A stretch of DNA of 64,000 nucleotides from an uncultured Clostridia bacterium (GCA_947313885.1 CAMZNU010000009.1:396-64395), one strand, 5' to 3'; shown: positions 47 through 38,201, counted from the first letter of the stretch. Notes: generated from the sequence alone by a model not told the origin. Program-made: numbers and translations.

Positions 47-121
<75 letters not shown>

Positions 122-137
122 TATTTTTCTTTTATAT

Positions 138-211
138 GTATCTGTAGCTCAGCTGGATAGAGCAACGGCCTTCTAAGCCGTAGGTCAGGGGTTCGAATCC
201 CTTCAGGTACG
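138..211 (+). tRNA. tRNA-Arg (anticodon TCT)
   Basis: Acceptor GTATCTG/CAGGTAC (one G-U), D-arm AGCTCAGCTGGATAGAGC, anticodon loop CT-TCT-AA, T-loop GGTTCGAATCC. Confidence 0.9.
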
Positions 212-221
212 TTTTTTATAT

Positions 222-294
222 GGTGGGTGTAGTTCAGGGGTAGAGCGCCAGATTGTGGTTCTGGTTGTCGTGGGTTCAAATCCCATCATCCACC
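222..294 (+). tRNA. tRNA-His (anticodon GTG) with encoded G-1
   Basis: Extra 5' G pairs with C73, which is the His identity element. Anticodon stem CCAGA/TCTGG with loop TT-GTG-GT, T-loop GGTTCAAATCC. Confidence 0.9.
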
Positions 295-303
295 CTTTTA
301 TAA

Positions 304-376
304 GGGTCACTAGCTCAGTTGGTAGAGCACTGGACTTTTAATCCAGTTGTCCCGGGTTCGAACCCCGGGTGACTCA
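304..376 (+). tRNA. tRNA-Lys (anticodon TTT), copy 1
   Basis: Acceptor GGGTCAC/GTGACTC, anticodon stem CTGGA/TCCAG with loop CT-TTT-AA, T-arm CCGGGTTCGAACCCCGG. Confidence 0.92.
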
Positions 377-380
377 TTTA

Positions 381-402
381 AAATCTCTTTGGAGATTTTT
401 TT
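381..402 (+). terminator. rho-independent terminator after tRNA-Lys copy 1
   Basis: Hairpin AAATCTC-tttg-GAGATTT followed by a T-run. Confidence 0.6.
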
Positions 403-436
403 ATTGAATTAATTAAAAAGTAATATAAAAAAGCAA

Positions 437-509
437 GGGTCACTAGCTCAGTTGGTAGAGCACTGGACTTTTAATCCAGTTGTCCCGGGTTCGAACCCCG
501 GGTGACTCA
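437..509 (+). tRNA. tRNA-Lys (anticodon TTT), copy 2 (identical to copy 1)
   Basis: 73 nt identical to 304-376. Confidence 0.92.
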
Positions 510-512
510 TTC

Positions 513-547
513 AAAAACATTAGAATCATAATTTCTAGTGTTTTTTT
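513..547 (+). terminator. rho-independent terminator closing the rrn/tRNA cluster
   Basis: Hairpin ACATTAGAA-(7 nt)-TTCTAGTGT (one G-U) followed by T7. Confidence 0.65.
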
Positions 548-687
548 GTTATATAGAAGAAAATATTGAATATATATATTAAGTACATATATAAATAATT
601 GACCAATAAAATAAGTACATTAAATGACAAACATATAGTAATAAAACATAGGACAAGTACATAGGTATATAACACAAGGAGGTAATT

Positions 688-3153
688 ATGAAAGTAGTAA
701 TTATAAAATTAAGGATAATATTAACTATGGTTATAATTTTTATGATGGCTGGGTGTGTCAACAAAGAAGATGCTAAGAAAGAGTTAAACATACTAGATAT
801 TAAAAAGTCCAATGTAGTTAATAGTGATGAAGCAAAAAATGATAACGAAAGCATAAAAAGAGTTGAAGTAGCTAGAATGTTAGGTTTAACATTTGCAAAT
901 GATGATGAAATAAATGATATTGAAAGAGAGATAACATATAAAGATGTAGATTATAGCAAAGAAGAATCAATATATATAACATTAGTATCCAATTTAAAAA
1001 TCATGTCAGGAGATAATGAAGAATTTAGAGGAGATGATAACTTAACAACAAAAGAAGCGGTGTACTTATTAGAAAAAATAAATGAAAAAAATAAATATAA
1101 TATTTATATAGACGAAAAAAATGCAAATAATCCTATATCGAGAGAATTATGGACAGAATTATTTATAAAAACTTTAGAGGATATGTCAGAAGGGGAAAAT
1201 TTATATAAGAAGTATAACTTAGAAAAAGAAAATATAATAATATTAGCAACAAATAATAAAAATAAAAAAATACCAGAAAATTATGTGATAACGAATAAAG
1301 GTTCAAGAAAAGTAGGAGTAATTGATTTAACAAAATATATAGATAATGAATTAGAAGTAATACTTAAAAATGGTGAAATTATAGGTGTAATGAATATATT
1401 AACGGTAGAGCCTACAATAAAAAATGCTTATATAGTATCGAATACATCTACATCAATAATAATATTTTCAGGTGGAGTGGAAAGGGAATACGTATTAATA
1501 AGCGGAATTGAAGAAAATTATAGCGGGAGTATATGTGATATTAACATTAAAGAAGGAATAGTATCGCGTTTAACAATATATGAAGAAGGTTATGTAGATA
1601 AAGTTATGAAATATAATAAAAATATTATGGAATTGCAAAACAAAGGAAATATGGAATTAGAGGAAGATTATGAAGTGTACTATATAAATAATGATATGAT
1701 GAGCTATAAAGGGTTTAATGATGTAGTAGTAGGTTATGGGGATGTAAGACACTTTATTAAAGACGAGAAAATAATAGCATCGGTTGTATTTGGAGAAATA
1801 GAACCTAAAAATATAAGGGTATTAATAAAAGATACAGCATTTAAAAATGAAATTCATGAAGAAGTAGAATTAGAAGTTGATGGTGATTATAAAATCATTT
1901 ATGGAAATGAAGAAGAAAGTCATAATAAGGGACATATATTCAAAATAGGTATAGAGGATAAAAACAAATATGGTGAAAAAAGAATATATGTACTGCCAGA
2001 AGATAAAAATAGTAGAATAAAAATTAATAGTATAAAAAGAAACTATGTAGATGATAAATCACCAGAATATCGCGGAATAATAGAATTGCAATATAGAGAT
2101 AAAAGTATAGTTATTGTTAATGAGTTAGATTTAGAGGAGTATTTATATGCTATAATACCTAGTGAAATGCCTATGAGTTTTGGGTTAGAGGCATTAAAAG
2201 TACAAAGTATTACGGCAAGAAGTTATGCATATAACCAGATATTTAGAAATAGGTTTAAAGAATACGGTGCTAATGTAGATGATTCTGTAATAAGCCAAGT
2301 GTATAATAATATAGAAGAACAAACATTAGGAGTAGAAGCAGTTGATAAAACAAAAGGTATTTATTTAGAAAGTGGAGGTAAAGTTATAAGTGCGAATTTT
2401 TATTCTACATCATCAGGAAACTCAGCAAATAGTGGAGATGTATGGTTTAATAGTAAAAATAAAAAATTTCCAACGTCAACAAAAGAGTATCTAAAGTCAA
2501 ACAAATTATATGAAGGAAAAGACTATGGAGACTTAAAAGAAGAATCCAATATGAGAAATTACATATTAGATCAAAATATTGAAAGTTATGACGCTCATAG
2601 TAGATGGTTTAGATGGGACGTTACTATGACGAGTGAGGAAATAAGAGATAGTATAAATAAAAGTATAAATTCTAGATATAAAGTAAATCAACACATGTTT
2701 AAATTTACTAATAAAGAAGGTAACAAAATAGAAGTAGATGATAATATAGAAGTTAAAAGTATAATAAACATAGAAATATTAGATAGAGGTGATGGAGGAA
2801 TAATAAGAAAACTATTAATATCAGATGAAGAAAAAGATATAGAAATAAAAGGTGAATATAACATAAGATTATTATTAGCACCGAAAAAAGCAGACGATAG
2901 TAAAAAAGATATAGTACTAAATAGGAAAGGGGATACATTAAAAAATTATAGTTTATTACCTAGTGGATTTTTTATAATAGACGATGAAACAGTAGACGAT
3001 GGAAAAGTACAATTTAAAATAAGTGGTGGTGGAAATGGTCATGGAGTTGGAATGAGTCAAAATGGTGTTAAGCAAATGGCTATGGAAGGCAAGAAATATG
3101 AAGAAATATTAAAGTATTATTATAAAGGTGTTGATATAAGGACAACAATGTAG
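688..3153 (+). CDS. SpoIID/LytB domain-containing lipoprotein (821 aa, long N-terminal extension)
   Basis: The C-terminal ~350 aa carry SpoIID-family blocks (ALKVQSITARSYAY, NFYSTSSGNSANSGDVW, GHGVGMSQNGVKQMA). The N-terminus has a signal peptide with lipobox MMAGC. SD AAGGAGG lies upstream. Confidence 0.85.
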   Translation: MKVVIIKLRIILTMVIIFMMAGCVNKEDAKKELNILDIKKSNVVNSDEAKNDNESIKRVEVARMLGLTFANDDEINDIEREITYKDVDYSKEESIYITLVSNLKIMSGDNEEFRGDDNLTTKEAVYLLEKINEKNKYNIYIDEKNANNPISRELWTELFIKTLEDMSEGENLYKKYNLEKENIIILATNNKNKKIPENYVITNKGSRKVGVIDLTKYIDNELEVILKNGEIIGVMNILTVEPTIKNAYIVSNTSTSIIIFSGGVEREYVLISGIEENYSGSICDINIKEGIVSRLTIYEEGYVDKVMKYNKNIMELQNKGNMELEEDYEVYYINNDMMSYKGFNDVVVGYGDVRHFIKDEKIIASVVFGEIEPKNIRVLIKDTAFKNEIHEEVELEVDGDYKIIYGNEEESHNKGHIFKIGIEDKNKYGEKRIYVLPEDKNSRIKINSIKRNYVDDKSPEYRGIIELQYRDKSIVIVNELDLEEYLYAIIPSEMPMSFGLEALKVQSITARSYAYNQIFRNRFKEYGANVDDSVISQVYNNIEEQTLGVEAVDKTKGIYLESGGKVISANFYSTSSGNSANSGDVWFNSKNKKFPTSTKEYLKSNKLYEGKDYGDLKEESNMRNYILDQNIESYDAHSRWFRWDVTMTSEEIRDSINKSINSRYKVNQHMFKFTNKEGNKIEVDDNIEVKSIINIEILDRGDGGIIRKLLISDEEKDIEIKGEYNIRLLLAPKKADDSKKDIVLNRKGDTLKNYSLLPSGFFIIDDETVDDGKVQFKISGGGNGHGVGMSQNGVKQMAMEGKKYEEILKYYYKGVDIRTTM

Positions 3154-3179
3154 CTATATGCTATATTGTTGTCTTTTTT
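3141..3179 (+). terminator. rho-independent terminator
   Basis: GACAACAAT-(15 nt)-ATTGTTGTC followed by T6. It overlaps the stop codon. Confidence 0.7.
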
Positions 3180-3245
3180 ATTAGTTGAATAGACAAGCAT
3201 GATTAATTACAATATTAGTATAAAAGATTAAGGATGGAGGAGAAT

Positions 3246-3584
3246 ATGAGCATAAAAGTAAAAACAGAACAAAGCTTTTTAGTAGTTAATCTAGAAGGTG
3301 AAATAGATCACCATAATGCTAGTAAAATAAGATTAGAATTAGATAAAAAAATAAGTGAAACAGATAAAAAAAAATTAATATTAAATTTTGAAGATGTTAG
3401 TTTTATGGATAGTTCAGGAATAGGACTGATTATAGGACGATATAAAATAATGAAAAATTTAAAAGGTGAAATATACGCAACTAACTTATCTAAGGAATTG
3501 TATAGAATATTTGATATATCAGGATTATTTAGATTAATAAAGCATTATGATACAGTGGAACAATGCAAAAAAACAGAAAGTTAA
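3246..3584 (+). CDS. spoIIAA: anti-sigma F factor antagonist SpoIIAA (STAS domain)
   Basis: STAS-fold sequence with the phosphorylatable-Ser motif FMDSSGIG. First gene of a spoIIAA-spoIIAB-sigF triad. Start moved from ORF-track 3234 to the ATG behind GGAGGAG. Confidence 0.9.
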   Translation: MSIKVKTEQSFLVVNLEGEIDHHNASKIRLELDKKISETDKKKLILNFEDVSFMDSSGIGLIIGRYKIMKNLKGEIYATNLSKELYRIFDISGLFRLIKHYDTVEQCKKTES

Positions 3585-3594
3585 GGGGGATAAA

Positions 3595-4026
3595 ATGTAT
3601 ACAAATGAAATAACATTAATATTAAGCTGTAAGTCAGAAAATGAGGGATTAGCAAGAATGTGCATATCGGGATTTTTGATGAAATTAGATCCAACGATAG
3701 AGGAGTTAAATGATATAAAAACGGCTTTATCCGAAGGTGTAACAAATGCAATTATACATGGTTACGAGCAAAAAGAGGGAGAAGTAATTTTAAAATGTAG
3801 AATAGAAGGGAGAAAAGTATACATAGAGATAAAGGATAAAGGTGTAGGGATAGAAAATATAGAGCAAGCCACAACACCGATGTATACGAGTAAGCCACAA
3901 TTAGAACGTTCGGGAATGGGATTTACAATAATGGAAACATTTATGGATGATCTAGAAATAATATCAAATAAAGAGAGTGGTACAATTATTAGAATGCATA
4001 AAACATTATGTAACACCTCTGAATAG
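3595..4026 (+). CDS. spoIIAB: anti-sigma F factor / serine kinase SpoIIAB
   Basis: GHKL-type kinase motifs (EGVTNAIIHG, IKDKGVGI, SGMGFTIM). Start placed at the ATG behind GGGGGA (ORF track begins at 3547, inside spoIIAA). Confidence 0.9.
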   Translation: MYTNEITLILSCKSENEGLARMCISGFLMKLDPTIEELNDIKTALSEGVTNAIIHGYEQKEGEVILKCRIEGRKVYIEIKDKGVGIENIEQATTPMYTSKPQLERSGMGFTIMETFMDDLEIISNKESGTIIRMHKTLCNTSE

Positions 4027-4037
4027 GGGTTGGTATA

Positions 4038-4757
4038 ATGGAAGATATATATGAATTAATATCAAAGGCACAAGCAGGTGATAAAAGGGCGACGGAAGAG
4101 ATTGTTGAAAATAATATAGGTTTAATATGGAGTGTAGTAAAGAAATTTACAAATAGAGGTCATGATGCGGATGACTTATTTCAGATAGGGGCGATAGGAT
4201 TAATAAAGTGTATAAACAAATTTAATTTAGAATATGATGTAAAATTTTCAACCTATGCAGTACCTATGATAATAGGGGAGATAAAAAGATTTTTAAGAGA
4301 CGATGGAATGATAAAAATTTCAAGACCGCTAAAAGAATTGCATGTAAAAGTTAAATATTTACATGATACTATGTTAAAAGAGACAGGTGAAGAACCTAAA
4401 ATAAGTGAGATGGCAAAGAGACTAAATGTAAATATTGAAGAGTTATTGTTATCGATGGAGGCGTGTAAAGATATTGAGTCTTTGTATTCTGTAGTTTATC
4501 AAGGTGATGGAAATTCTATATATTTAATAGATAAAATAAGTAGTCAAGGGTCGGAGGAAGATGTAATAATTGAAAATTTAACATTAAATGAAATATTGGA
4601 CAAGCTAAAACCAAAAGAGCGTGAAATAATAAAATTAAGATATTTTCAAGATAAAACACAAACAGAGGTAGCATATGAAGTTGGGGTATCACAGGTACAA
4701 ATATCTAGAATAGAAAAAAAAGTATTGGAAACGATGCGACGACATATAAAAGTATGA
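4038..4757 (+). CDS. sigF: RNA polymerase sporulation sigma factor SigF
   Basis: Sigma-70 regions 2-4 (DLFQIGAIGLIKCINKF, TQTEVAYEVGVSQVQISRIEKK). Position directly after spoIIAA/AB. Confidence 0.9.
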   Translation: MEDIYELISKAQAGDKRATEEIVENNIGLIWSVVKKFTNRGHDADDLFQIGAIGLIKCINKFNLEYDVKFSTYAVPMIIGEIKRFLRDDGMIKISRPLKELHVKVKYLHDTMLKETGEEPKISEMAKRLNVNIEELLLSMEACKDIESLYSVVYQGDGNSIYLIDKISSQGSEEDVIIENLTLNEILDKLKPKEREIIKLRYFQDKTQTEVAYEVGVSQVQISRIEKKVLETMRRHIKV

Positions 4758-23632: not shown

Positions 23633-24910
23633 ATGGTTAAAGCAATAGTAGGAGCAAATTGGGGCGATGAAGGTAAAGGGAAAATAACAGATTTACTAGC
23701 AGAAAAAGCGGATTACGTAGTAAGATTTCAAGGTGGAAGTAATGCAGGACATACTATAATTAACGAATATGGAAAATTTGCACTTCATCAATTACCATCA
23801 GGAATATTTACAGACGGCGTAGTAAATGTAATAGGTAACGGAGTAGCAGTAAACGTTGAGTACTTAATAGAAGAAATGAAATCAGTAGAATCAGCTAAAA
23901 AAGAATTAAATTTATTAATTTCAAATAGAGCACAAATTTTATTGCCACACCATATATTATTAGACGTATATGAAGAAGAAAGATTAGGGGATAAAAAATT
24001 TGGATCAACTAAATCAGGAATAGCACCTTTTTATTCAGATAAGTATGCAAAAGTAGGATTACAAGTAGGAGAGCTTTTTGATAATGATGGATTAGAAGAA
24101 AAAATAAAAGGTATTTATGAAAAAGTAAACGTTATATTAAAACACTTATATAATAAGGAAGAAATAAATTATAAAGACGTTTTAAAAACATTAGAGGAAA
24201 ATAAAAAATTCTTAACAAAATACGTAGCAGATACGTCACTAATTTTAAGAAAAGCGATAAAAGAAAATAAAACTATTTTATTAGAAGGACAGTTAGGAGC
24301 ATTAAAAGATACAGATCACGGAATATATCCATATGTAACGTCATCATCAACGTTAGCAGGATATAGTACAGTAGGTGCAGGAATACCACCATATGCAATT
24401 CAAAATATAGTAGCTGTTACAAAAGCATACTCTACAGCAGTAGGAGAAGGACCATTTGTAGGAGAATTATTTGGAGAAGCTGGAGAATTATTAAGAGAAA
24501 AAGGTGGAGATAAAGGAGAGTATGGTGCTACAACAGGTAGAGCAAGACGAGTAGCATATTTTGATGTTGTAGCTACTAGATACGGCTTACAATGTCAAGG
24601 AGCTACAGAAGTAGCGCTTACAGCAATTGACGTATTAGCATATTTAGAAGAAATTCCAGTGTGTGTAGCATATGAAATTGATGGGGAAAGAGTTGAGGAT
24701 TTTGGAACTACACCAGAACTTTACAAAGCAAAACCTATATATGAAATGTTAAAAGGTTGGAAATGTGACATAAGAGGAATAACAAATTATGACGACTTAC
24801 CAAAAGAAGCTAAAGAATATGTTAAATATATTGAAGAAAAAATAGGTGTACCAATTAAAACAGTATCAACAGGACCAAAGAGACATGAAATAATAACAGA
24901 AGTGAAATAA
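23633..24910 (+). CDS. purA: adenylosuccinate synthetase
   Basis: GANWGDEGKGKITD P-loop, QGGSNAGHT, GTTGRARR. Confidence 0.95.
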   Translation: MVKAIVGANWGDEGKGKITDLLAEKADYVVRFQGGSNAGHTIINEYGKFALHQLPSGIFTDGVVNVIGNGVAVNVEYLIEEMKSVESAKKELNLLISNRAQILLPHHILLDVYEEERLGDKKFGSTKSGIAPFYSDKYAKVGLQVGELFDNDGLEEKIKGIYEKVNVILKHLYNKEEINYKDVLKTLEENKKFLTKYVADTSLILRKAIKENKTILLEGQLGALKDTDHGIYPYVTSSSTLAGYSTVGAGIPPYAIQNIVAVTKAYSTAVGEGPFVGELFGEAGELLREKGGDKGEYGATTGRARRVAYFDVVATRYGLQCQGATEVALTAIDVLAYLEEIPVCVAYEIDGERVEDFGTTPELYKAKPIYEMLKGWKCDIRGITNYDDLPKEAKEYVKYIEEKIGVPIKTVSTGPKRHEIITEVK

Positions 24911-24923
24911 AAATTAATATTTA

Positions 24924-24951
24924 AAAATGACCTGTAAAGGTCATTTTTTTT
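24924..24951 (+). terminator. rho-independent terminator of purBA
   Basis: ATGACCT-gta-AAGGTCAT followed by T8. Confidence 0.75.
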
Positions 24952-24990: not shown

Positions 24991-25019
24991 TTGACATATT
25001 CACCCATATATAGTGTAAT
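24991..25019 (+). promoter_or_regulatory. sigma-A-type promoter of the three-gene island (TTGACA-17 nt-TGTAAT)
   Basis: Perfect -35, 17-nt spacer, 5/6 match at -10, about 40 nt upstream of the ORF1 start. Confidence 0.55.
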
Positions 25020-25057
25020 TATACAATAAATACAAAATATATAGGAGGTTTAATTGT

Positions 25058-26359
25058 ATGGAAAGTAATTTTAAAGAGAAAATTGAAAATCATAAAGATT
25101 TAAAAGGTAAAATCAAAGATAGTACCTATGAAAAACTTGCTAATTTATATGAAGAAATAATTTCATTTACATCAGCAGAGGAAATGATGGAAAAGAGTAT
25201 TGAATATAGAAAAAAAATATTAATCATTAGAAGTCTCTTAGAGGAATATAAAGATGGTGATGATGAAAAAAGAAAAGAAATAATAGATTATTATATTAAT
25301 AATAATAAGTTGAAAGAGTTAAATAGTATTGGTCTTTGTTGGTATTACGATATGAAGTTTAAAAGAAGTAAGGCAACTTTATATAGTAGTAACTACGAGG
25401 GTGCTAGTAATTGGGAAGAGAAATTTAAAGAAAAAGAATTTGAAAAAAAAGAAAAATTAGTACAATTCATATTTAAAACATGTAATATGCATATAAATAA
25501 AGGGAATAAGCATGTAAAATTAAAATCATTATCAACATCATTTTTTACTGTCCTTTATAAATACATGGAAATTGATAAAGATAATAATGCAAATTTATAT
25601 ATTATAAAAAATGCAGAAATAAATTTTATTGAAACTCATAAAAGAGAATCATTGCAACAATACATAGTATCGGAAAATAGAGTAGAAAACACAAAATTTT
25701 GCATAGCATTTGGTGACGCTAGAGATAAGAACCTAGATAATTATAATAAATGGGGAAGGAATTATAATAAAGAACATATAGAAATAGTAGAAAGAAACAA
25801 TGGAGATGAAGAAAATAAAACAGGTCTTGGTAGTCGCATCTCACCAATTAAAGATGAAGAAGTTATAGTGAGTCATGAGTTTTGGGATATTGAAAAGTAT
25901 GAATCAAGCTCAGAAATAGAACCAGAATCAAAAAAATGCTATCATTTTACGTTTAATTTACCAGAATATGGTCATTTGCTTTATTGTTTCTTTAGACTTT
26001 ATAACGATGATAGTGAAATAAATAATAATGAAATAAAAATAGATGACGATGCTAAAAAAGAAATGAAAGATTACATTAAAAAAATTATAGAGTTAATAAA
26101 AAAACAGATAGAAGAACTAGAAGAGCTAGAAGAAGTAGAAAAGATAAAAGATAGAAAAGAGATATTTAAAAGTATACAAGAGGAACTAGAAAATAAAATA
26201 GATGATGTTTCATATGAAAAAATAGAAACAGTTTTATCGCTTATAGATTGGAAAATAGAAAAGAAAGAAAAGAAAAAGATGAAAATACGTAAAAGAGATA
26301 ACCAAAATACATTAAATCTAATAGCCAATTTATTTAAAGAAGGTCTAAAAAATGTATAA
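25058..26359 (+). CDS. hypothetical protein, island gene 1 (433 aa, no recognisable domain, E/K-rich coiled-coil C-terminus)
   Basis: Long ORF with SD AGGAGG 9 nt upstream. Same strand as, and overlapping or abutting, the next gene. No motif I can assign. Confidence 0.75.
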   Translation: MESNFKEKIENHKDLKGKIKDSTYEKLANLYEEIISFTSAEEMMEKSIEYRKKILIIRSLLEEYKDGDDEKRKEIIDYYINNNKLKELNSIGLCWYYDMKFKRSKATLYSSNYEGASNWEEKFKEKEFEKKEKLVQFIFKTCNMHINKGNKHVKLKSLSTSFFTVLYKYMEIDKDNNANLYIIKNAEINFIETHKRESLQQYIVSENRVENTKFCIAFGDARDKNLDNYNKWGRNYNKEHIEIVERNNGDEENKTGLGSRISPIKDEEVIVSHEFWDIEKYESSSEIEPESKKCYHFTFNLPEYGHLLYCFFRLYNDDSEINNNEIKIDDDAKKEMKDYIKKIIELIKKQIEELEELEEVEKIKDRKEIFKSIQEELENKIDDVSYEKIETVLSLIDWKIEKKEKKKMKIRKRDNQNTLNLIANLFKEGLKNV

Positions 26360-26375
26360 AGAAAAGGAGGTAATA

Positions 26376-27677
26376 ATGAATAATAGTGATAACAATAAAA
26401 TGTTTACCTTTGAATATATTGTAAACAATTATTTTAATAAATATGAAGTATACATACCAATAATTCAGAGAAATTATAAGTGGGACAAAGAAACAGCGGC
26501 AAAATTAGTAACAGATCTATGGGATGCATTTGATAATAAAAGGGGAAAATATACAGCAGGAATGATTACAACATACAAAGAAGAAGAAAAAGAAAATGGA
26601 AAAACAAAAATGCAACTAGTAGATGGTCAGCAACGAATAATAACATTATATATGTTACTTAAAATAATAGATCCATCTAAAGAGTACTTCACATTTAAAT
26701 TTGAAAGAGATGATGGACTAGAAGAAAAAAAGACTAGAGAATATTATTTAAAAAATATTAATAATCATAAAGAATATTCTATTGTAGATACAGATAGATT
26801 TAAAGAAAATTATTACGAGATGGACAGAAGGTTAAAGGAAGCAAAAAACTATTCTAAAGAGAGACATAATGAATTTTGTGAATACATAATGAAAAATTTA
26901 TATATGTTAATGCACATAAGTGAAATAGAGCCTTTTGATGAATTTATGAATATAAATAAAAACAAAACAAGATTTGTTATTTCGGATAGAATAAAAACTA
27001 ATTTACTTTTAGATTCAAAAAAAGAAAATAAAGAAGAAGTTTTAGAACTTTTTGAACAATTATCAAAATCGATGTTTACAGATAAGGTATGGGATTTAGT
27101 ATCACGAGGATATACGGGAGAAGAAATCATAGAAGGTAAACGTAAAAGAACGTATCATTATAAAGATGAAAACAGATTGAAACTATTATGCTGTGAACGT
27201 CATGGAGATAGTGAATATGATGTTACTAGTATATCAAAGTACGATTTTAAAGAAGAGCTACAGTATTTAAAACATTATAATGAACTTTTAAAAACAATAA
27301 AAGAAGATATGAATGCACAAAAATGGAAATCTTATAATGCATTTAATTGTATGTATGAAATAAATTATTCAGAAGAAAAAAGGTTCTTTTCAATAATAAA
27401 GGAAAAAAAGGAAAACTATAAAATAGAGAACTACTTTTTAGACGAGTACAAAAAATTAGGATATTTAGATAAAAATATTTTTATTGAAGCACAGTCATTA
27501 AGGGAAGAACGAGAAAATAAAGAGAAAGAAGAGAAAAAGAAAGAAGAGAAAGAGGAAGAAAATCTTTTAAAAAGCATTGAATCGAAAAACGATGAATGGA
27601 TAAACCATGATGAAGATGATATTAAAATATTTGAAGAAATATATAAACAATATATATACCTAAAATACAAAAAATAG
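26376..27677 (+). CDS. DUF262 (ParB/Srx-like, GmrSD N-terminal type) domain protein, island gene 2; no DUF1524/HNH detected
   Basis: Motifs IPIIQRNYKW, VDGQQRIITLYML, FMNINKNKTRFVISDRIKTNL. Start set at the ATG 5 nt after AAGGAGG. An alternative ATG at 26352 overlaps the ORF1 stop. Confidence 0.8.
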   Translation: MNNSDNNKMFTFEYIVNNYFNKYEVYIPIIQRNYKWDKETAAKLVTDLWDAFDNKRGKYTAGMITTYKEEEKENGKTKMQLVDGQQRIITLYMLLKIIDPSKEYFTFKFERDDGLEEKKTREYYLKNINNHKEYSIVDTDRFKENYYEMDRRLKEAKNYSKERHNEFCEYIMKNLYMLMHISEIEPFDEFMNINKNKTRFVISDRIKTNLLLDSKKENKEEVLELFEQLSKSMFTDKVWDLVSRGYTGEEIIEGKRKRTYHYKDENRLKLLCCERHGDSEYDVTSISKYDFKEELQYLKHYNELLKTIKEDMNAQKWKSYNAFNCMYEINYSEEKRFFSIIKEKKENYKIENYFLDEYKKLGYLDKNIFIEAQSLREERENKEKEEKKKEEKEEENLLKSIESKNDEWINHDEDDIKIFEEIYKQYIYLKYKK

Positions 27678-27685
27678 GAGGGAAT

Positions 27686-29842
27686 ATGAATAATACGGAA
27701 CAGAAAAAAATGAACTTAAAAGAAATATTAGAAATGTACAGTGGAATAATTATTCCAGATATTCAAAGAGATTATGTTATGGGGTCAGGTGGCAAGAAAC
27801 TTAAAAGTCTTTTAGATGCAATTAAAGAAAGTGAAAAAGAAAATAAAAAAGAAAATAAAAATTTTAACTTTAGTTGTATAATTGGTCATAGAGATGAAGA
27901 AAATAAATTTCATATTTATGATGGACAACAACGTCTAGCAACGCTAATTGCTCTGTGTTCATATGGAAATAATGATGAAGAGATAAAAAAGCTGTTGAAT
28001 AAATTTTCTTTTACTAAAAGAGAGAAAGCTAATGAAATGTTAGAAGACACGTCAAAAATTAACGAAGAAGAGATAGTAGATTTTTCTACATATTCATTAA
28101 ATGAGTTAATAAAAAATAAGGAGGAAATATCAGTAGAGTATATTTTAAATAACATATACTTTACTATAATTACAATTGATAAAATAAGTGATGCAGAGCA
28201 ATTTTTTCTAGATATAAATGATGGTTTAGATCTTAAATCACATGAAATGTATAAGGCAGAACTTTATAATCACATAAAAAAATTCGAAGGTTTTAAAGAA
28301 TTTGCTTTAAAGATGGAAAATGAGTGGCTTGAAATTTTCCGTAAACATAATAAAGCCAACGAACCAGAAAAGAGCTTAGTATACTTTTTACAATATTGCT
28401 TTAGAATGATGTGGATAGAAGATAAAGGATGCGATGATGAATTTAAACCATCAGATATAAAATTTATACAATATAGTCATATAGAACGTATAGAAAAAAT
28501 AATAGATGGGATAAAAGCTGTTATTGAAAATTCAGGGGAGTTTAGTTATAAAGAAAAAGGATTAATTTTTAACCCTAGGAGTTACAGATATAAAGGAACA
28601 CATTGGGACTTAACTCATAATAATTATGCTAATATGTTGAAAATATTTTTAGAAAATATAGAAAATATAGAAGAAATAAATAAAGATGTTGTAATGTGGT
28701 GTTACATATCAGCATCACCCGATAGTAGTGTTGACATATTAAATAAACATCTTAGGTTTATAAAAAAACTGTTAAATAATAATAGAGTTAAAAATAGTAA
28801 AGGCATTTTAGCCTATAACTTTGAGATACCAATATACTCAAGGTACTATGTAGATACTATACCAAAATATTATATTCTAAATTATAGTAGCGAAGAGATA
28901 GAAAATTACGATAAAAAGGAAGCAGATAATAAATCATTATTATTTTGTAATGACGTTATAAAGATTAATAAAGAGTTTATAAAAAATAATAATATAAATA
29001 TAGATCTTATAGATAAATATATATTACAAGTAGAAGAAGGAAGTGAAATAAAAGTAATATTAGAAAAAGAAAAAAATAAATTAAAGTCATCTAAAATAAA
29101 AGAGATAGAAGAATATGAAGACTTACCATTTATTAATGGATTAATAGACAATTTATATACCGATGATAAATATGAGGAAATAAAGGAAGATAGCATATAT
29201 AAAAAAATATTAGATAAAAGTAAAGAACTAGATCTAGATTTAGAAGGGGCAGAAGTTTTTAAACTTTTAATTAGAGAAAATATAGATGTAGAAAAAGTAA
29301 GTTTTAAAGGAGTTACGTTGAAATCTAAAAATTGTAACGGAACTGGACAAAACTTATGTGGCAAAGTTATACCAACTAATTGGTGCGATCTATTTACTAT
29401 GGATAAAGATGATAGAGCAAATATGTACGAAAGAGAAAAAGGGGAAGAATATTGGATTGCGAAGATTACAGAAAATGAATTAGATAATTTAGTTAAAGAA
29501 CTTAAATTAGGATGGATAGTAGATGGTGAAATTATTAGGTACACAGAAACGGACCCAAATAATGATAAGGTCCGTAATTCGGGTTTTTCTCCATATAAGC
29601 AAAAATATGTTGTTGTAGATATAATTAATTTTCATGAGAATTATAAAATGGTAACAAAGCACCCAAGCGCGGAGAATAGTCCTTGGCAAGATACTGAATA
29701 TGGATATAATAATAAAGTAAAAAGATTTGCCTCAATATATAAGAAATATGTTAATGAACAAGACAATAATGAACAATATAAGGAAGAAATTGAAAAGGCT
29801 AACGAGTACATAGAAGAAGCGAGAAAACATTATAATCAATAA
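27686..29842 (+). CDS. DUF262 domain protein with ~480-aa uncharacterised C-terminal region, island gene 3; no DUF1524/HNH detected
   Basis: Motifs IPDIQRDYVMG, YDGQQRLATLIAL, FFLDINDGLDLKSHEMYKAEL. SD AGGAGG. Starts 8 nt after the gene 2 stop. Confidence 0.8.
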   Translation: MNNTEQKKMNLKEILEMYSGIIIPDIQRDYVMGSGGKKLKSLLDAIKESEKENKKENKNFNFSCIIGHRDEENKFHIYDGQQRLATLIALCSYGNNDEEIKKLLNKFSFTKREKANEMLEDTSKINEEEIVDFSTYSLNELIKNKEEISVEYILNNIYFTIITIDKISDAEQFFLDINDGLDLKSHEMYKAELYNHIKKFEGFKEFALKMENEWLEIFRKHNKANEPEKSLVYFLQYCFRMMWIEDKGCDDEFKPSDIKFIQYSHIERIEKIIDGIKAVIENSGEFSYKEKGLIFNPRSYRYKGTHWDLTHNNYANMLKIFLENIENIEEINKDVVMWCYISASPDSSVDILNKHLRFIKKLLNNNRVKNSKGILAYNFEIPIYSRYYVDTIPKYYILNYSSEEIENYDKKEADNKSLLFCNDVIKINKEFIKNNNINIDLIDKYILQVEEGSEIKVILEKEKNKLKSSKIKEIEEYEDLPFINGLIDNLYTDDKYEEIKEDSIYKKILDKSKELDLDLEGAEVFKLLIRENIDVEKVSFKGVTLKSKNCNGTGQNLCGKVIPTNWCDLFTMDKDDRANMYEREKGEEYWIAKITENELDNLVKELKLGWIVDGEIIRYTETDPNNDKVRNSGFSPYKQKYVVVDIINFHENYKMVTKHPSAENSPWQDTEYGYNNKVKRFASIYKKYVNEQDNNEQYKEEIEKANEYIEEARKHYNQ

Positions 29843-29862
29843 ATTAAAATAAAATAAAAACC

Positions 29863-29905
29863 CCTTCAAGTGAAACTTAATTGTTTCCACTTGAAGGATT
29901 TTTTT
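29863..29905 (+). terminator. rho-independent terminator of the island operon
   Basis: CCTTCAAGTGAAAC-ttaatt-GTTTCCACTTGAAGG (one bulge) followed by ATTTTTTTATTTT. Confidence 0.8.
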
Positions 29906-30067
29906 ATTTTAAAATAGTTTTATTTCACCTAGATAAAATAAAACTATTAAATAATCTATAACAATTAAAAATGTAAAAATAAATATAGTTGACAAACTCC
30001 TATTATCTTGTACCTAAGAAATTAATGTGTTATAATTTTGTATTAATAGAGTACATTGGAGGTAACT

Positions 30068-38033: not shown

Positions 38034-38062
38034 TTGAAATAGAAAAAGAAATGTTGTATACT
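38034..38062 (+). promoter_or_regulatory. promoter for the riboswitch-permease unit (TTGAAA-17 nt-TATACT)
   Basis: Hexamers read directly, about 15 nt upstream of the aptamer. Confidence 0.45.
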
Positions 38063-38075
38063 TTGGATAAGTAAA

Positions 38076-38201
38076 TAAACCCGTATATTCTCATAATTGG
38101 TTGAGAGTTTCTACTAGTCACCGTAAATGACTAACTATGGGGTTATTAATATACGCATTATTTTTGTATATTAAAAACCTCATTTTAAATGGGGTTTTTT
38201 T
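38076..38201 (+). promoter_or_regulatory. purine riboswitch (guanine/hypoxanthine class, C at the specificity position) with intrinsic terminator
   Basis: Aptamer core UAUAUU-CUCA-UAAUUGG-UUGAG-AGUUUCUAC-UAGUCA-CCGUAAA-UGACUA-ACUAUGG parallels the xpt guanine riboswitch (UAUAAU..GAUAUGG..AGUUUCUACC..CCGUAAAU..GACUAUG). Terminator ACCTCAT-ttta-ATGGGGT plus T7 at 38176-38201. Confidence 0.85.

Follow-up and report, generated by a model that had tools for sequence, protein, structure and literature searches.

In a 64,000-nucleotide stretch of DNA from an uncultured Clostridia bacterium (GCA_947313885.1, CAMZNU010000009.1:396-64395), here called the window and numbered from its first letter, three genes lie between purB/purA upstream (purA 23633-24910) and lepA/hemN downstream. 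Judged from sequence and gene context, this A-B-C operon is likely a defense system. Genes B and C each encode a DUF262 protein, and gene A comes first in the operon and belongs to a family of its own. Within that wider claim, the reading that we favor on balance is an anti-phage or anti-mobile-element operon of the GmrSD/DUF262 lineage that would work without the canonical DUF1524 His-Me nuclease, through a nucleoside triphosphate (NTP)-gated B-C sensor and an effector. The initial annotation had described three plus-strand open reading frames (ORFs), each with a strong Shine-Dalgarno sequence, and both translation and the sequence itself confirmed them. The genes and their domains are as follows.

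25058-26359, + strand: ORF1, gene A, 433 amino acids, intact, uncharacterized family
26376-27677, + strand: ORF2, gene B, 433 amino acids, DUF262 domain plus conserved C-terminal domain
26424-27062, + strand: DUF262 (ParB-like NTPase) domain of gene B, Pfam GmrSD_N at amino acids 17-229 (E 3e-19)
27686-29842, + strand: ORF3, gene C, 718 amino acids, DUF262, helical middle domain, and variable C-terminal domain
27716-28264, + strand: DUF262 domain of gene C, Pfam GmrSD_N at amino acids 11-193 (E 5e-17), motifs QRDY, YDGQQR, and FFLDIN
28284-29125, + strand: middle, mostly helical domain of gene C, amino acids ~200-480, block-mean predicted local distance difference test (pLDDT) mostly 80-96 with a dip at ~285-305
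29126-29839, + strand: C-terminal domain of gene C, amino acids ~481-718, beta-hairpin plus helices, pLDDT 40-75, candidate effector/specificity module

The Shine-Dalgarno sequence AGGAGG is found at all three ORFs, at a distance to the ATG of 8 nucleotides (nt) in ORF1, 6 nt in ORF2 (start at 26376), and 4 nt in ORF3 (start at 27686). The alternative ORF2 start that had been proposed at 26352 does overlap the end of ORF1 (ATGTATAA), but the N termini in the homologue alignment favor 26376.

Conservation of the triad across genomes

We built hidden Markov models (HMMs) for the A, B, and C families and scanned each fetched locus with them. The order A-B-C was found in ~20 independent loci from Clostridia, Paenibacillus, Lysinibacillus, and metagenomes, so that the three genes keep together as a unit in other genomes, among defense genes and mobile elements, as a candidate system of this kind was expected to be. 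The same order was recovered whichever entry point was used, be it ORF3 (L004-L018), ORF1 (L001-L003 and L040-L045), or the viral contig L035. Gene A is conserved upstream in all complete loci, and the three genes are tightly packed, commonly with overlaps of a few bases. Homologues of ORF3 and ORF2 fell into 85 and 87 clusters, respectively, mostly at 35-50% identity, from Lysinibacillus, Paenibacillus, Clostridium, and many metagenomes.

Pseudogenized copies occur in Paenibacillus hexagrammi (L007), in Catonella (L019/L045), and in L024, which is behavior typical of accessory genes. L024 (GCA_947313815.1, CAMZNI010000007.1, 8655-12714) is a metagenome-assembled genome (MAG) ~95% identical to the window that carries a decayed triad at the same purA-adjacent site. 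Its triad has accumulated 56 indel events (38 in ORF1, 7 in ORF2, and 11 in the available part of ORF3) with 2.7-6.3% mismatches, whereas purB/purA have zero indels and 0.5-1.2% mismatches and the gene for the FAD protein is likewise free of indels. The window operon might then itself be an inactive remnant in the course of being lost, whatever the family does elsewhere. Consistent with such decay, the window A protein is the shortest among its close relatives (433 versus ~480-505 amino acids) and the window C protein is without the family's last segment. However, none of the three ORFs is disrupted over their 4.8 kb, strong Shine-Dalgarno sequences and a terminator are retained, the window proteins keep all of the family-invariant residues, and distant but intact members lack the same segments of A. 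We consider a remnant quite unlikely.

Two further loci were observed alongside these. A complete triad lies on a 5.7-kb contig (L010, JAEYSH010000199.1) that was binned to a Methanobacteriota archaeon MAG, while the other copies are from Bacillota; this assignment probably reflects misbinning, or possibly an interdomain transfer. L020 (1-8954) holds an ORF2-like gene (581 amino acids) and a partial ORF3-like gene, with no ORF1-family match in the 6.5 kb upstream, and is possibly a variant with a different first gene.

Defense genes and mobile elements around the triad

To describe the surroundings, 134 neighboring proteins from 14 loci were scanned with PADLOC and Pfam. PADLOC detected Drt1a (DRT type 1, E = 0) and a complete Olokun pair (OloA, 1e-85; OloB, 9e-166) as well as MADS mad2/mad3, DrmD, QatA, PifA, DzbA, GajA, AriA, and several PDC (PADLOC candidate) families; Qat-, Gabija-, and PARIS-like genes are thus represented. 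Pfam detected phage-type integrases and IS66, IS21, and IS200 transposases. In Lysinibacillus capsici (L004), the Drt1a match (E = 0) is to a 1283-amino-acid reverse transcriptase-nitrilase encoded at 233-4081, 3 kb upstream of the triad, and two tyrosine recombinase genes lie just downstream. Elsewhere, the triad adjoins a Tn7-like element (L007), Mrr and a Y1 transposase (L008), or a KAP NTPase and HipA (L025). The prophage-like contig L035 (IMG/VR) encodes a holin, an endolysin, an HNH/helix-turn-helix (HTH) protein, and two large serine integrases, followed by the triad at the contig end, which is the usual site of prophage-borne defense cargo. A tblastn search with ORF3 (E ≤ 1e-10) found no copy in deposited plasmids or phage genomes.

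These surroundings could also suit a ParB-like, NTP-dependent DNA-handling module with no part in defense, serving maintenance, partition, sister-element exclusion, or DndB-like regulation of modification. Like DUF262, partition proteins and the regulator DndB are members of the ParB/Srx superfamily (PMC12065111), the loci often adjoin integrases, transposons, or a prophage end, and the window operon stands between housekeeping genes. However, neither the operon nor, with any consistency, its surroundings contain a ParA, a parS-like array, an HTH domain, or a modification gene of the dnd/ssp/dpd kind, and Dnd/Ssp models did not figure in the leading families of the 134 neighbors. With regard to ParABS, Pfam finds only GmrSD_N in the ORF2 and ORF3 families, and there are no repeat arrays within or around the operon. 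Moreover, bona fide defense genes dominate the neighbors, and the characterized DUF262 proteins of this architecture class are all defense enzymes (PMC12065111, PMC11411939, PMC12137116, PMC11662687). A DNA-handling role outside defense is, in our judgment, very unlikely.

Two DUF262 proteins without a recognizable nuclease

In GmrSD, BrxU, SspE, and DndI, the DUF262 domain binds and hydrolyzes NTP via its DGQQR motif, detects a modification of the DNA, and governs a His-Me nuclease at the C terminus (PMC12065111, PMC11662687). The DUF262 motif strings that the initial annotation had read in ORF2 and ORF3 are all present in the translations (VDGQQR in ORF2 and YDGQQR in ORF3) and coincide with Pfam GmrSD_N matches. 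Across 37 sequences, the invariant residues of the gene C domain are Q27/R28, D79-R83, and F174/N178; those of gene B, numbered from the 26352 start, are Q39/R40, D91-R95 (the DGQQR motif), and F198/N202. Because hhalign aligns the ORF2 and ORF3 families at the DUF262 region alone, B and C must have diverged anciently.

The regions that follow DUF262 had been described as unassignable K/E/N-rich sequence, a description that does not hold, as they are conserved family-wide and have invariant residues of their own. In gene B, the C-terminal invariants include N274/R275/L276, and in gene C they are E228, E245, W307, K360, N364, Y395/Y396, E478, N484, G485, and D568. Moreover, amino acids 200-480 of ORF3 fold confidently. 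The AlphaFold2 model of gene C, made from the 37-sequence alignment, has a mean pLDDT of 75.5 and is good over amino acids 1-490 and poor over amino acids 490-718; it contains two strands (540-549 and 554-561) followed by helices. When this model was compared with the Protein Data Bank (PDB) by Foldseek, it matched only SspE (6jiv, 7drr, and 7drs) and DndI (9jfl), at E ~4e-5 and template modeling scores near 0.2, and as modeled these matches comprise essentially the DUF262 domain plus some helices. The ORF2 profile matches 9jfl and SspE across the N-terminal domain.

Next, we looked for the nuclease. Pfam (E ≤ 1) found no DUF1524 (PF07510) or HNH domain in 37 ORF3-family and 37 ORF2-family members. 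Four genuine DUF262-plus-DUF1524 proteins, which carry the EH..P / GN..N..N motif, were compared with the families by hhalign, and the DUF262 region (amino acids ~1-215) alone aligned, at 98.2% and 98.7% probability; the gene B region gave 98.7% against these GmrSD-type proteins, again over DUF262 only. No conserved histidine is present in the C-terminal halves of the ORF2 or ORF3 families. At the sequence level, the absence of the nuclease is robust, in agreement with the initial annotation.

Gene C might nonetheless be an ordinary GmrSD/SspE-type enzyme whose active nuclease, His-Me-like or other, has diverged strongly, with B as a TgvA/GrwB-like helper and A as an accessory. The hairpin at 540-549 and 554-561 and the helices after it are beta-beta-alpha-like, with the invariant D568 just beyond, and SspE and DndI themselves have atypical HNH motifs of two strands and a loop (PMC11662687). 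Foldseek also pairs the model weakly with 7dri_B, the C-terminal domain of SspE (E 1.6, probability 0.23). Under relaxed thresholds, hhalign runs the ORF3 family colinearly over a GmrSD-type protein and places EH..P opposite the 540-561 hairpin; however, this extension leaves the score no higher, and its per-column confidence is zero. In addition, no His or Asn in or near the hairpin is conserved across the 37 sequences, Pfam detects DUF1524/HNH in 0/37 members, and the PDB profile search matches SspE only at DGQQR. The C-terminal domain is furthermore missing or shortened in operon variants, and the pLDDT of the model there is 40-75. It is possible that the gene C C terminus is a vestigial, inactive His-Me remnant; an active nuclease in this region, and with it an ordinary restriction enzyme, is unlikely.

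Gene A and its fusion variants

ORF1 had been taken for an orphan. A word-based search gave only 3 homologues, but an exhaustive profile search among 1.84 billion proteins found a family of 63 cluster representatives. ORF1 has no match in Pfam, PADLOC, NCBIfam, or PHROG. Across 36 members, the residues E87, G92, S157, S159, K168, N189, D266, E268, and L307 are invariant. The AlphaFold2 model, made from a four-sequence alignment, is unusable (pLDDT 41.6). Two candidate relationships were tried and rejected. A likeness to YejK/NdpA began with a match of the ORF1-family profile to PDB 9be2 (E 0.007 over 37 residues) and a 50% hhalign probability to the Escherichia coli sequence; it collapsed to 4.3% when the ORF1 family was compared with a seven-member YejK family profile and was set aside as a chance motif match. 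Hidden homology of A to the C-terminal parts of B or C or to DUF1524 received hhalign probabilities of ≤ 0.3%, and A showed no relationship to B, C, or GmrSD-type proteins.

Distant A-family members were found in five further contexts, and each time a DUF262 pair or a B::C fusion follows. Fusions of the latter kind, B-like and then C-like, occur in L022, L023, L025, L027, and L039 and are 1020-1372 amino acids long. All three that were scanned with Pfam (L023, L025, and L027) contain two GmrSD_N stretches, L022 and L039 give tandem ORF2-like and ORF3-like HMM matches, and the L039 fusion carries QRNY...DGQQR and QRDY...DGQQR. The middle domain of gene C is kept wholly or partly in the fusions. 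The proteins encoded upstream of the fusions in L023 and L027 (705 and 840 amino acids) match neither the ORF1 family nor Pfam. The variants in which A or its neighborhood is altered are as follows.

L026, 539-6387: NADAR-A fusion, NADAR, B, and C
L037, 3713-9262, and L038: A, NADAR, B, and C, beside serine recombinases
L025: TIM-barrel-like-A fusion and B::C
L039: 800-amino-acid A fusion and B::C

A NADAR gene also lies near the fused variant of L027 (1444-1992), and NADAR thus accompanies four operons (L026, L037, L038, and L027). In the A-family variants, C is shorter (642-666 amino acids) or the C-like part of the fusion ends near HMM position 300-460, and L025, L026, and L037 have a truncated C-terminal domain of C or none. 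Because C is shortened where A has extra enzymatic domains, the long C-terminal domain and the additions to A tend to be alternatives. An apurinic/apyrimidinic (AP) endonuclease identity for the N-terminal domain fused to A (P0236, P0228, and P0229) was not adopted and is kept as a weak lead only.

NADARs undo the ADP-ribosylation of guanine or cytidine in nucleic acids and are antitoxins that accompany the ADP-ribosyltransferase (ART) toxins DarT1 and YarT (PMC11543638, PMC11125620, PMC12945103). By analogy, A could be a nucleic-acid-modifying toxin, ART-like or glycosidase-like, held by a NADAR antidote and released by a B-C phage-sensing switch, which would make the system one of abortive infection or of a toxin-antitoxin type rather than one of restriction. 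The position of NADAR, fused to or directly after A in L026 and L037/L038 and nearby in L027, is what such a pair would show, and the strict conservation of polar residues in A (E87, S157, S159, K168, N189, D266, and E268) would suit an enzyme. However, the 36 A-family members have no ART, DarT, or glycosylase match in Pfam (E ≤ 1), and ORF1 has none in PADLOC. The window operon and most triads are without NADAR, and an unguarded toxin would need some other restraint; the fold prediction for A, moreover, failed. We regard a toxin of this kind as improbable.

Comparison with known systems

The initial annotation could not place the operon in a named system, and this was borne out: the PADLOC matches of ORF2 (HEC-06, Orf5, and SspE) are confined to the N-terminal DUF262 domain, within the first ~100-220 residues, ORF3 has none, and NCBIfam gives nothing but a sub-threshold DGQHR-domain match for ORF3. 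The closest validated relatives are TgvAB of Vibrio cholerae VPI-2 (PMC11411939) and GrwAB of V. cholerae WASA VSP-II (PMC12137116), two-gene, GmrSD-like type IV restriction systems in which a heteromeric DUF262 pair requires both DGQQR motifs. The triad likewise has two adjacent DUF262 paralogues with DGQQR intact in both, and the fusions argue that these act jointly. In TgvAB and GrwAB, however, one partner bears a DUF1524 His-Me nuclease; here neither does, and there is a third gene, A. We set TgvA and GrwB apart by their published descriptions rather than by sequence comparison. With GmrSD, BrxU, SspE, DndI, and HEC-06, the triad shares an N-terminal DUF262 with QR, DGQQR, and FxxxN followed by a helical region, but it has no DUF1524, it has two different subunits rather than a homodimer, and it has no phosphorothioate or BREX module. 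Because DUF1524 is absent and the third gene is conserved, the triad belongs neither with TgvAB/GrwAB nor with GmrSD.

Menshen (NsnABC) is similar in having three genes around a DUF262 protein without DUF1524 and in its polymorphic accessory or effector domains (PMC12065111). However, Menshen has one DUF262 protein together with the ABC/AAA_15 ATPase NsnB and the inPIN-nuclease NsnC, whereas the triad has two DUF262 proteins. Pfam searches of ORF1-3 and of the families to which they belong yielded neither an ATPase nor a PIN or BECR domain, and no Nsn model of PADLOC matched. Because it has no ABC ATPase and no inPIN-nuclease, the triad is not Menshen. The Menshen study mentions further DUF262-centered systems without describing them (PMC12065111). 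Dazbog and PD-T4-2, which are DUF262 associated and without DUF1524, gave no model match for ORF1-3 (PADLOC v2.0.0, E ≤ 1), and DzbA was seen only in a neighbor of another locus. Phosphorothioate systems of the Dnd/Ssp kind have linked modification genes, whereas the window flanks are purB/purA and lepA/hemN. The likeness to DarT-NADAR and YbiA-YarT lies in the NADAR placement described above; no ART fold or DarT signature was detected in A, the window operon has no NADAR, and DarT systems have no DUF262. None of the papers found that mention DUF262, from 2025 onward or earlier, describes this architecture. Taken together, these comparisons suggest a defense system of the DUF262/GmrSD lineage with a new partner family.

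Boundaries and composition of the operon

Terminators had been annotated on both sides of the unit, and both hairpins were confirmed. The signals around the operon are as follows.

24923-24948, + strand: purA intrinsic terminator, 11-bp stem plus T-run (terminator scanner), free energy (dG) -12.7 kcal/mol, upstream boundary of the operon
24991-25019, + strand: putative promoter TTGACA-17 nt-TGTAAT, 11/12 consensus positions, -10 element without the conserved A at position 2
29863-29905, + strand: operon-closing intrinsic terminator, 14-bp hairpin with one bulge, then AUUUUUUUAUUUU, ViennaRNA dG -18.9 kcal/mol

The consensus terminator scanner missed the closing terminator because of the bulge in its stem. 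The annotated promoter string is present, but such matches are not enriched in this AT-rich DNA (36 seen versus 42.6 ± 7.8 in shuffles), and the string is therefore no more than a plausible promoter.

The suspicion that the unit is AT rich held up in a windowed calculation: the G+C content of 24991-29905 is 0.250 versus 0.288 for the window, the lowest 4.9-kb stretch in it (1.2nd percentile). We rejected this as a sign of horizontal transfer because ORF1-3 have the same G+C at third codon positions (GC3, 0.16-0.19) as the genes on either side (0.12-0.20). Codon positions 1 and 2 account for the dip, and the low G+C thus reflects the K/E/N/I-rich composition of the proteins rather than foreign codon usage. 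A search for att-like direct or inverted repeats bounding the operon gave only AT-rich chance matches. The operon had been said to look inserted between housekeeping operons, yet there is no sign of recent insertion, as GC3 matches the flanks, att-like repeats are lacking, and the related strain L024 has the unit at the same site.

Several features outside the operon were also observed. An AT-rich palindrome (29906-29955; two abutting 25-nt arms, 80% complementary) lies between the ORF3 terminator and the lepA promoter region. For lepA itself, the ORF list gives a TTG start at 30056, and ATG 30068 is likelier; TTG 30056 lies inside TTGGAGGT, the Shine-Dalgarno sequence of ATG 30068, and the TTG-start product is absent from the protein collection. 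Five tandem tRNA genes stand at the start of the window (47-509; Rfam tRNA, 61-71 bits). A purine riboswitch aptamer (RF00167) at 38061-38157 on the + strand scores 62.6 bits versus a gathering score of 37 and presumably controls the next gene downstream.

Proposed mechanism and implications

In the mechanism that we propose, B and C would form an NTP-gated heteromer via their ParB-like domains, mirroring TgvAB and GrwAB, and the B::C fusions are Rosetta-stone evidence for such a heteromer. The heteromer would scan DNA and recognize a feature of the invader, most likely a base or backbone modification, in a type IV-like manner. The operon has no accompanying modification gene, which suggests that the feature sensed would be the invader's own. 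Recognition would then license an effector, for which the candidates are protein A and the variable C-terminal domain in gene C. Between these, we favor A as the effector-bearing or effector-recruiting subunit because of its strict co-occurrence with the DUF262 pair, its invariant polar residues, and its being the site of enzymatic fusions. Of the extra modules linked to A, NADAR is well supported and the TIM barrel weakly so, and C loses its long C-terminal domain in those variants. For these specific steps, our confidence is evenly divided at best.

Several observations weigh against an A-B-C defense operon that acts through an NTP-gated sensor and a separate effector. No effector domain was recognized, and gene A has neither detectable homology to anything nor a usable predicted structure. 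The A family is also rare (63 representatives in 1.84 billion proteins), and the number of loci behind the guilt-by-association argument is accordingly modest. In the window, the operon stands alone between housekeeping operons, without a defense island, and the terminus of gene C is divergent and shortened, without the family's final FFIKL-type segment. As for the modules fused to A, the xylose-isomerase/AP-endonuclease TIM-barrel match is below threshold (best E 8.7e-6, 26 bits versus a Pfam cutoff of 31.1 bits), and the PDB profile search did not confirm a TIM barrel fused to A.

The recurrence of NADAR means that the output may be nucleic acid base chemistry rather than simple cleavage; because no ART signature was detected in A, we offer this as a hypothesis. 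In its fullest form, which we think unlikely, the B-C NTPases would recognize foreign, probably modified, DNA and switch on A as a new family of base-attacking enzymes, acting by ADP-ribosylation-like chemistry or base excision and with no conventional nuclease; NADAR, a de-ADP-ribosylase and N-glycosidase, and the AP-endonuclease-like TIM barrel would then be interchangeable additions in sister operons. If true, bacterial immunity would have an arm of base chemistry that is gated by DUF262.

As far as is known, bacteria attack phages that shield their DNA by base modification mainly with DUF262/GmrSD enzymes. To our knowledge, all characterized members kill by a His-Me nuclease. The three HMMs built here could label ~20 or more loci that are now annotated as hypothetical or as DUF262 only. 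The A-B-C operon offers a defined, clonable case of how a ParB-like NTP switch couples to a different output, and the NADAR link, if confirmed, would join two so far separate branches of immunity.

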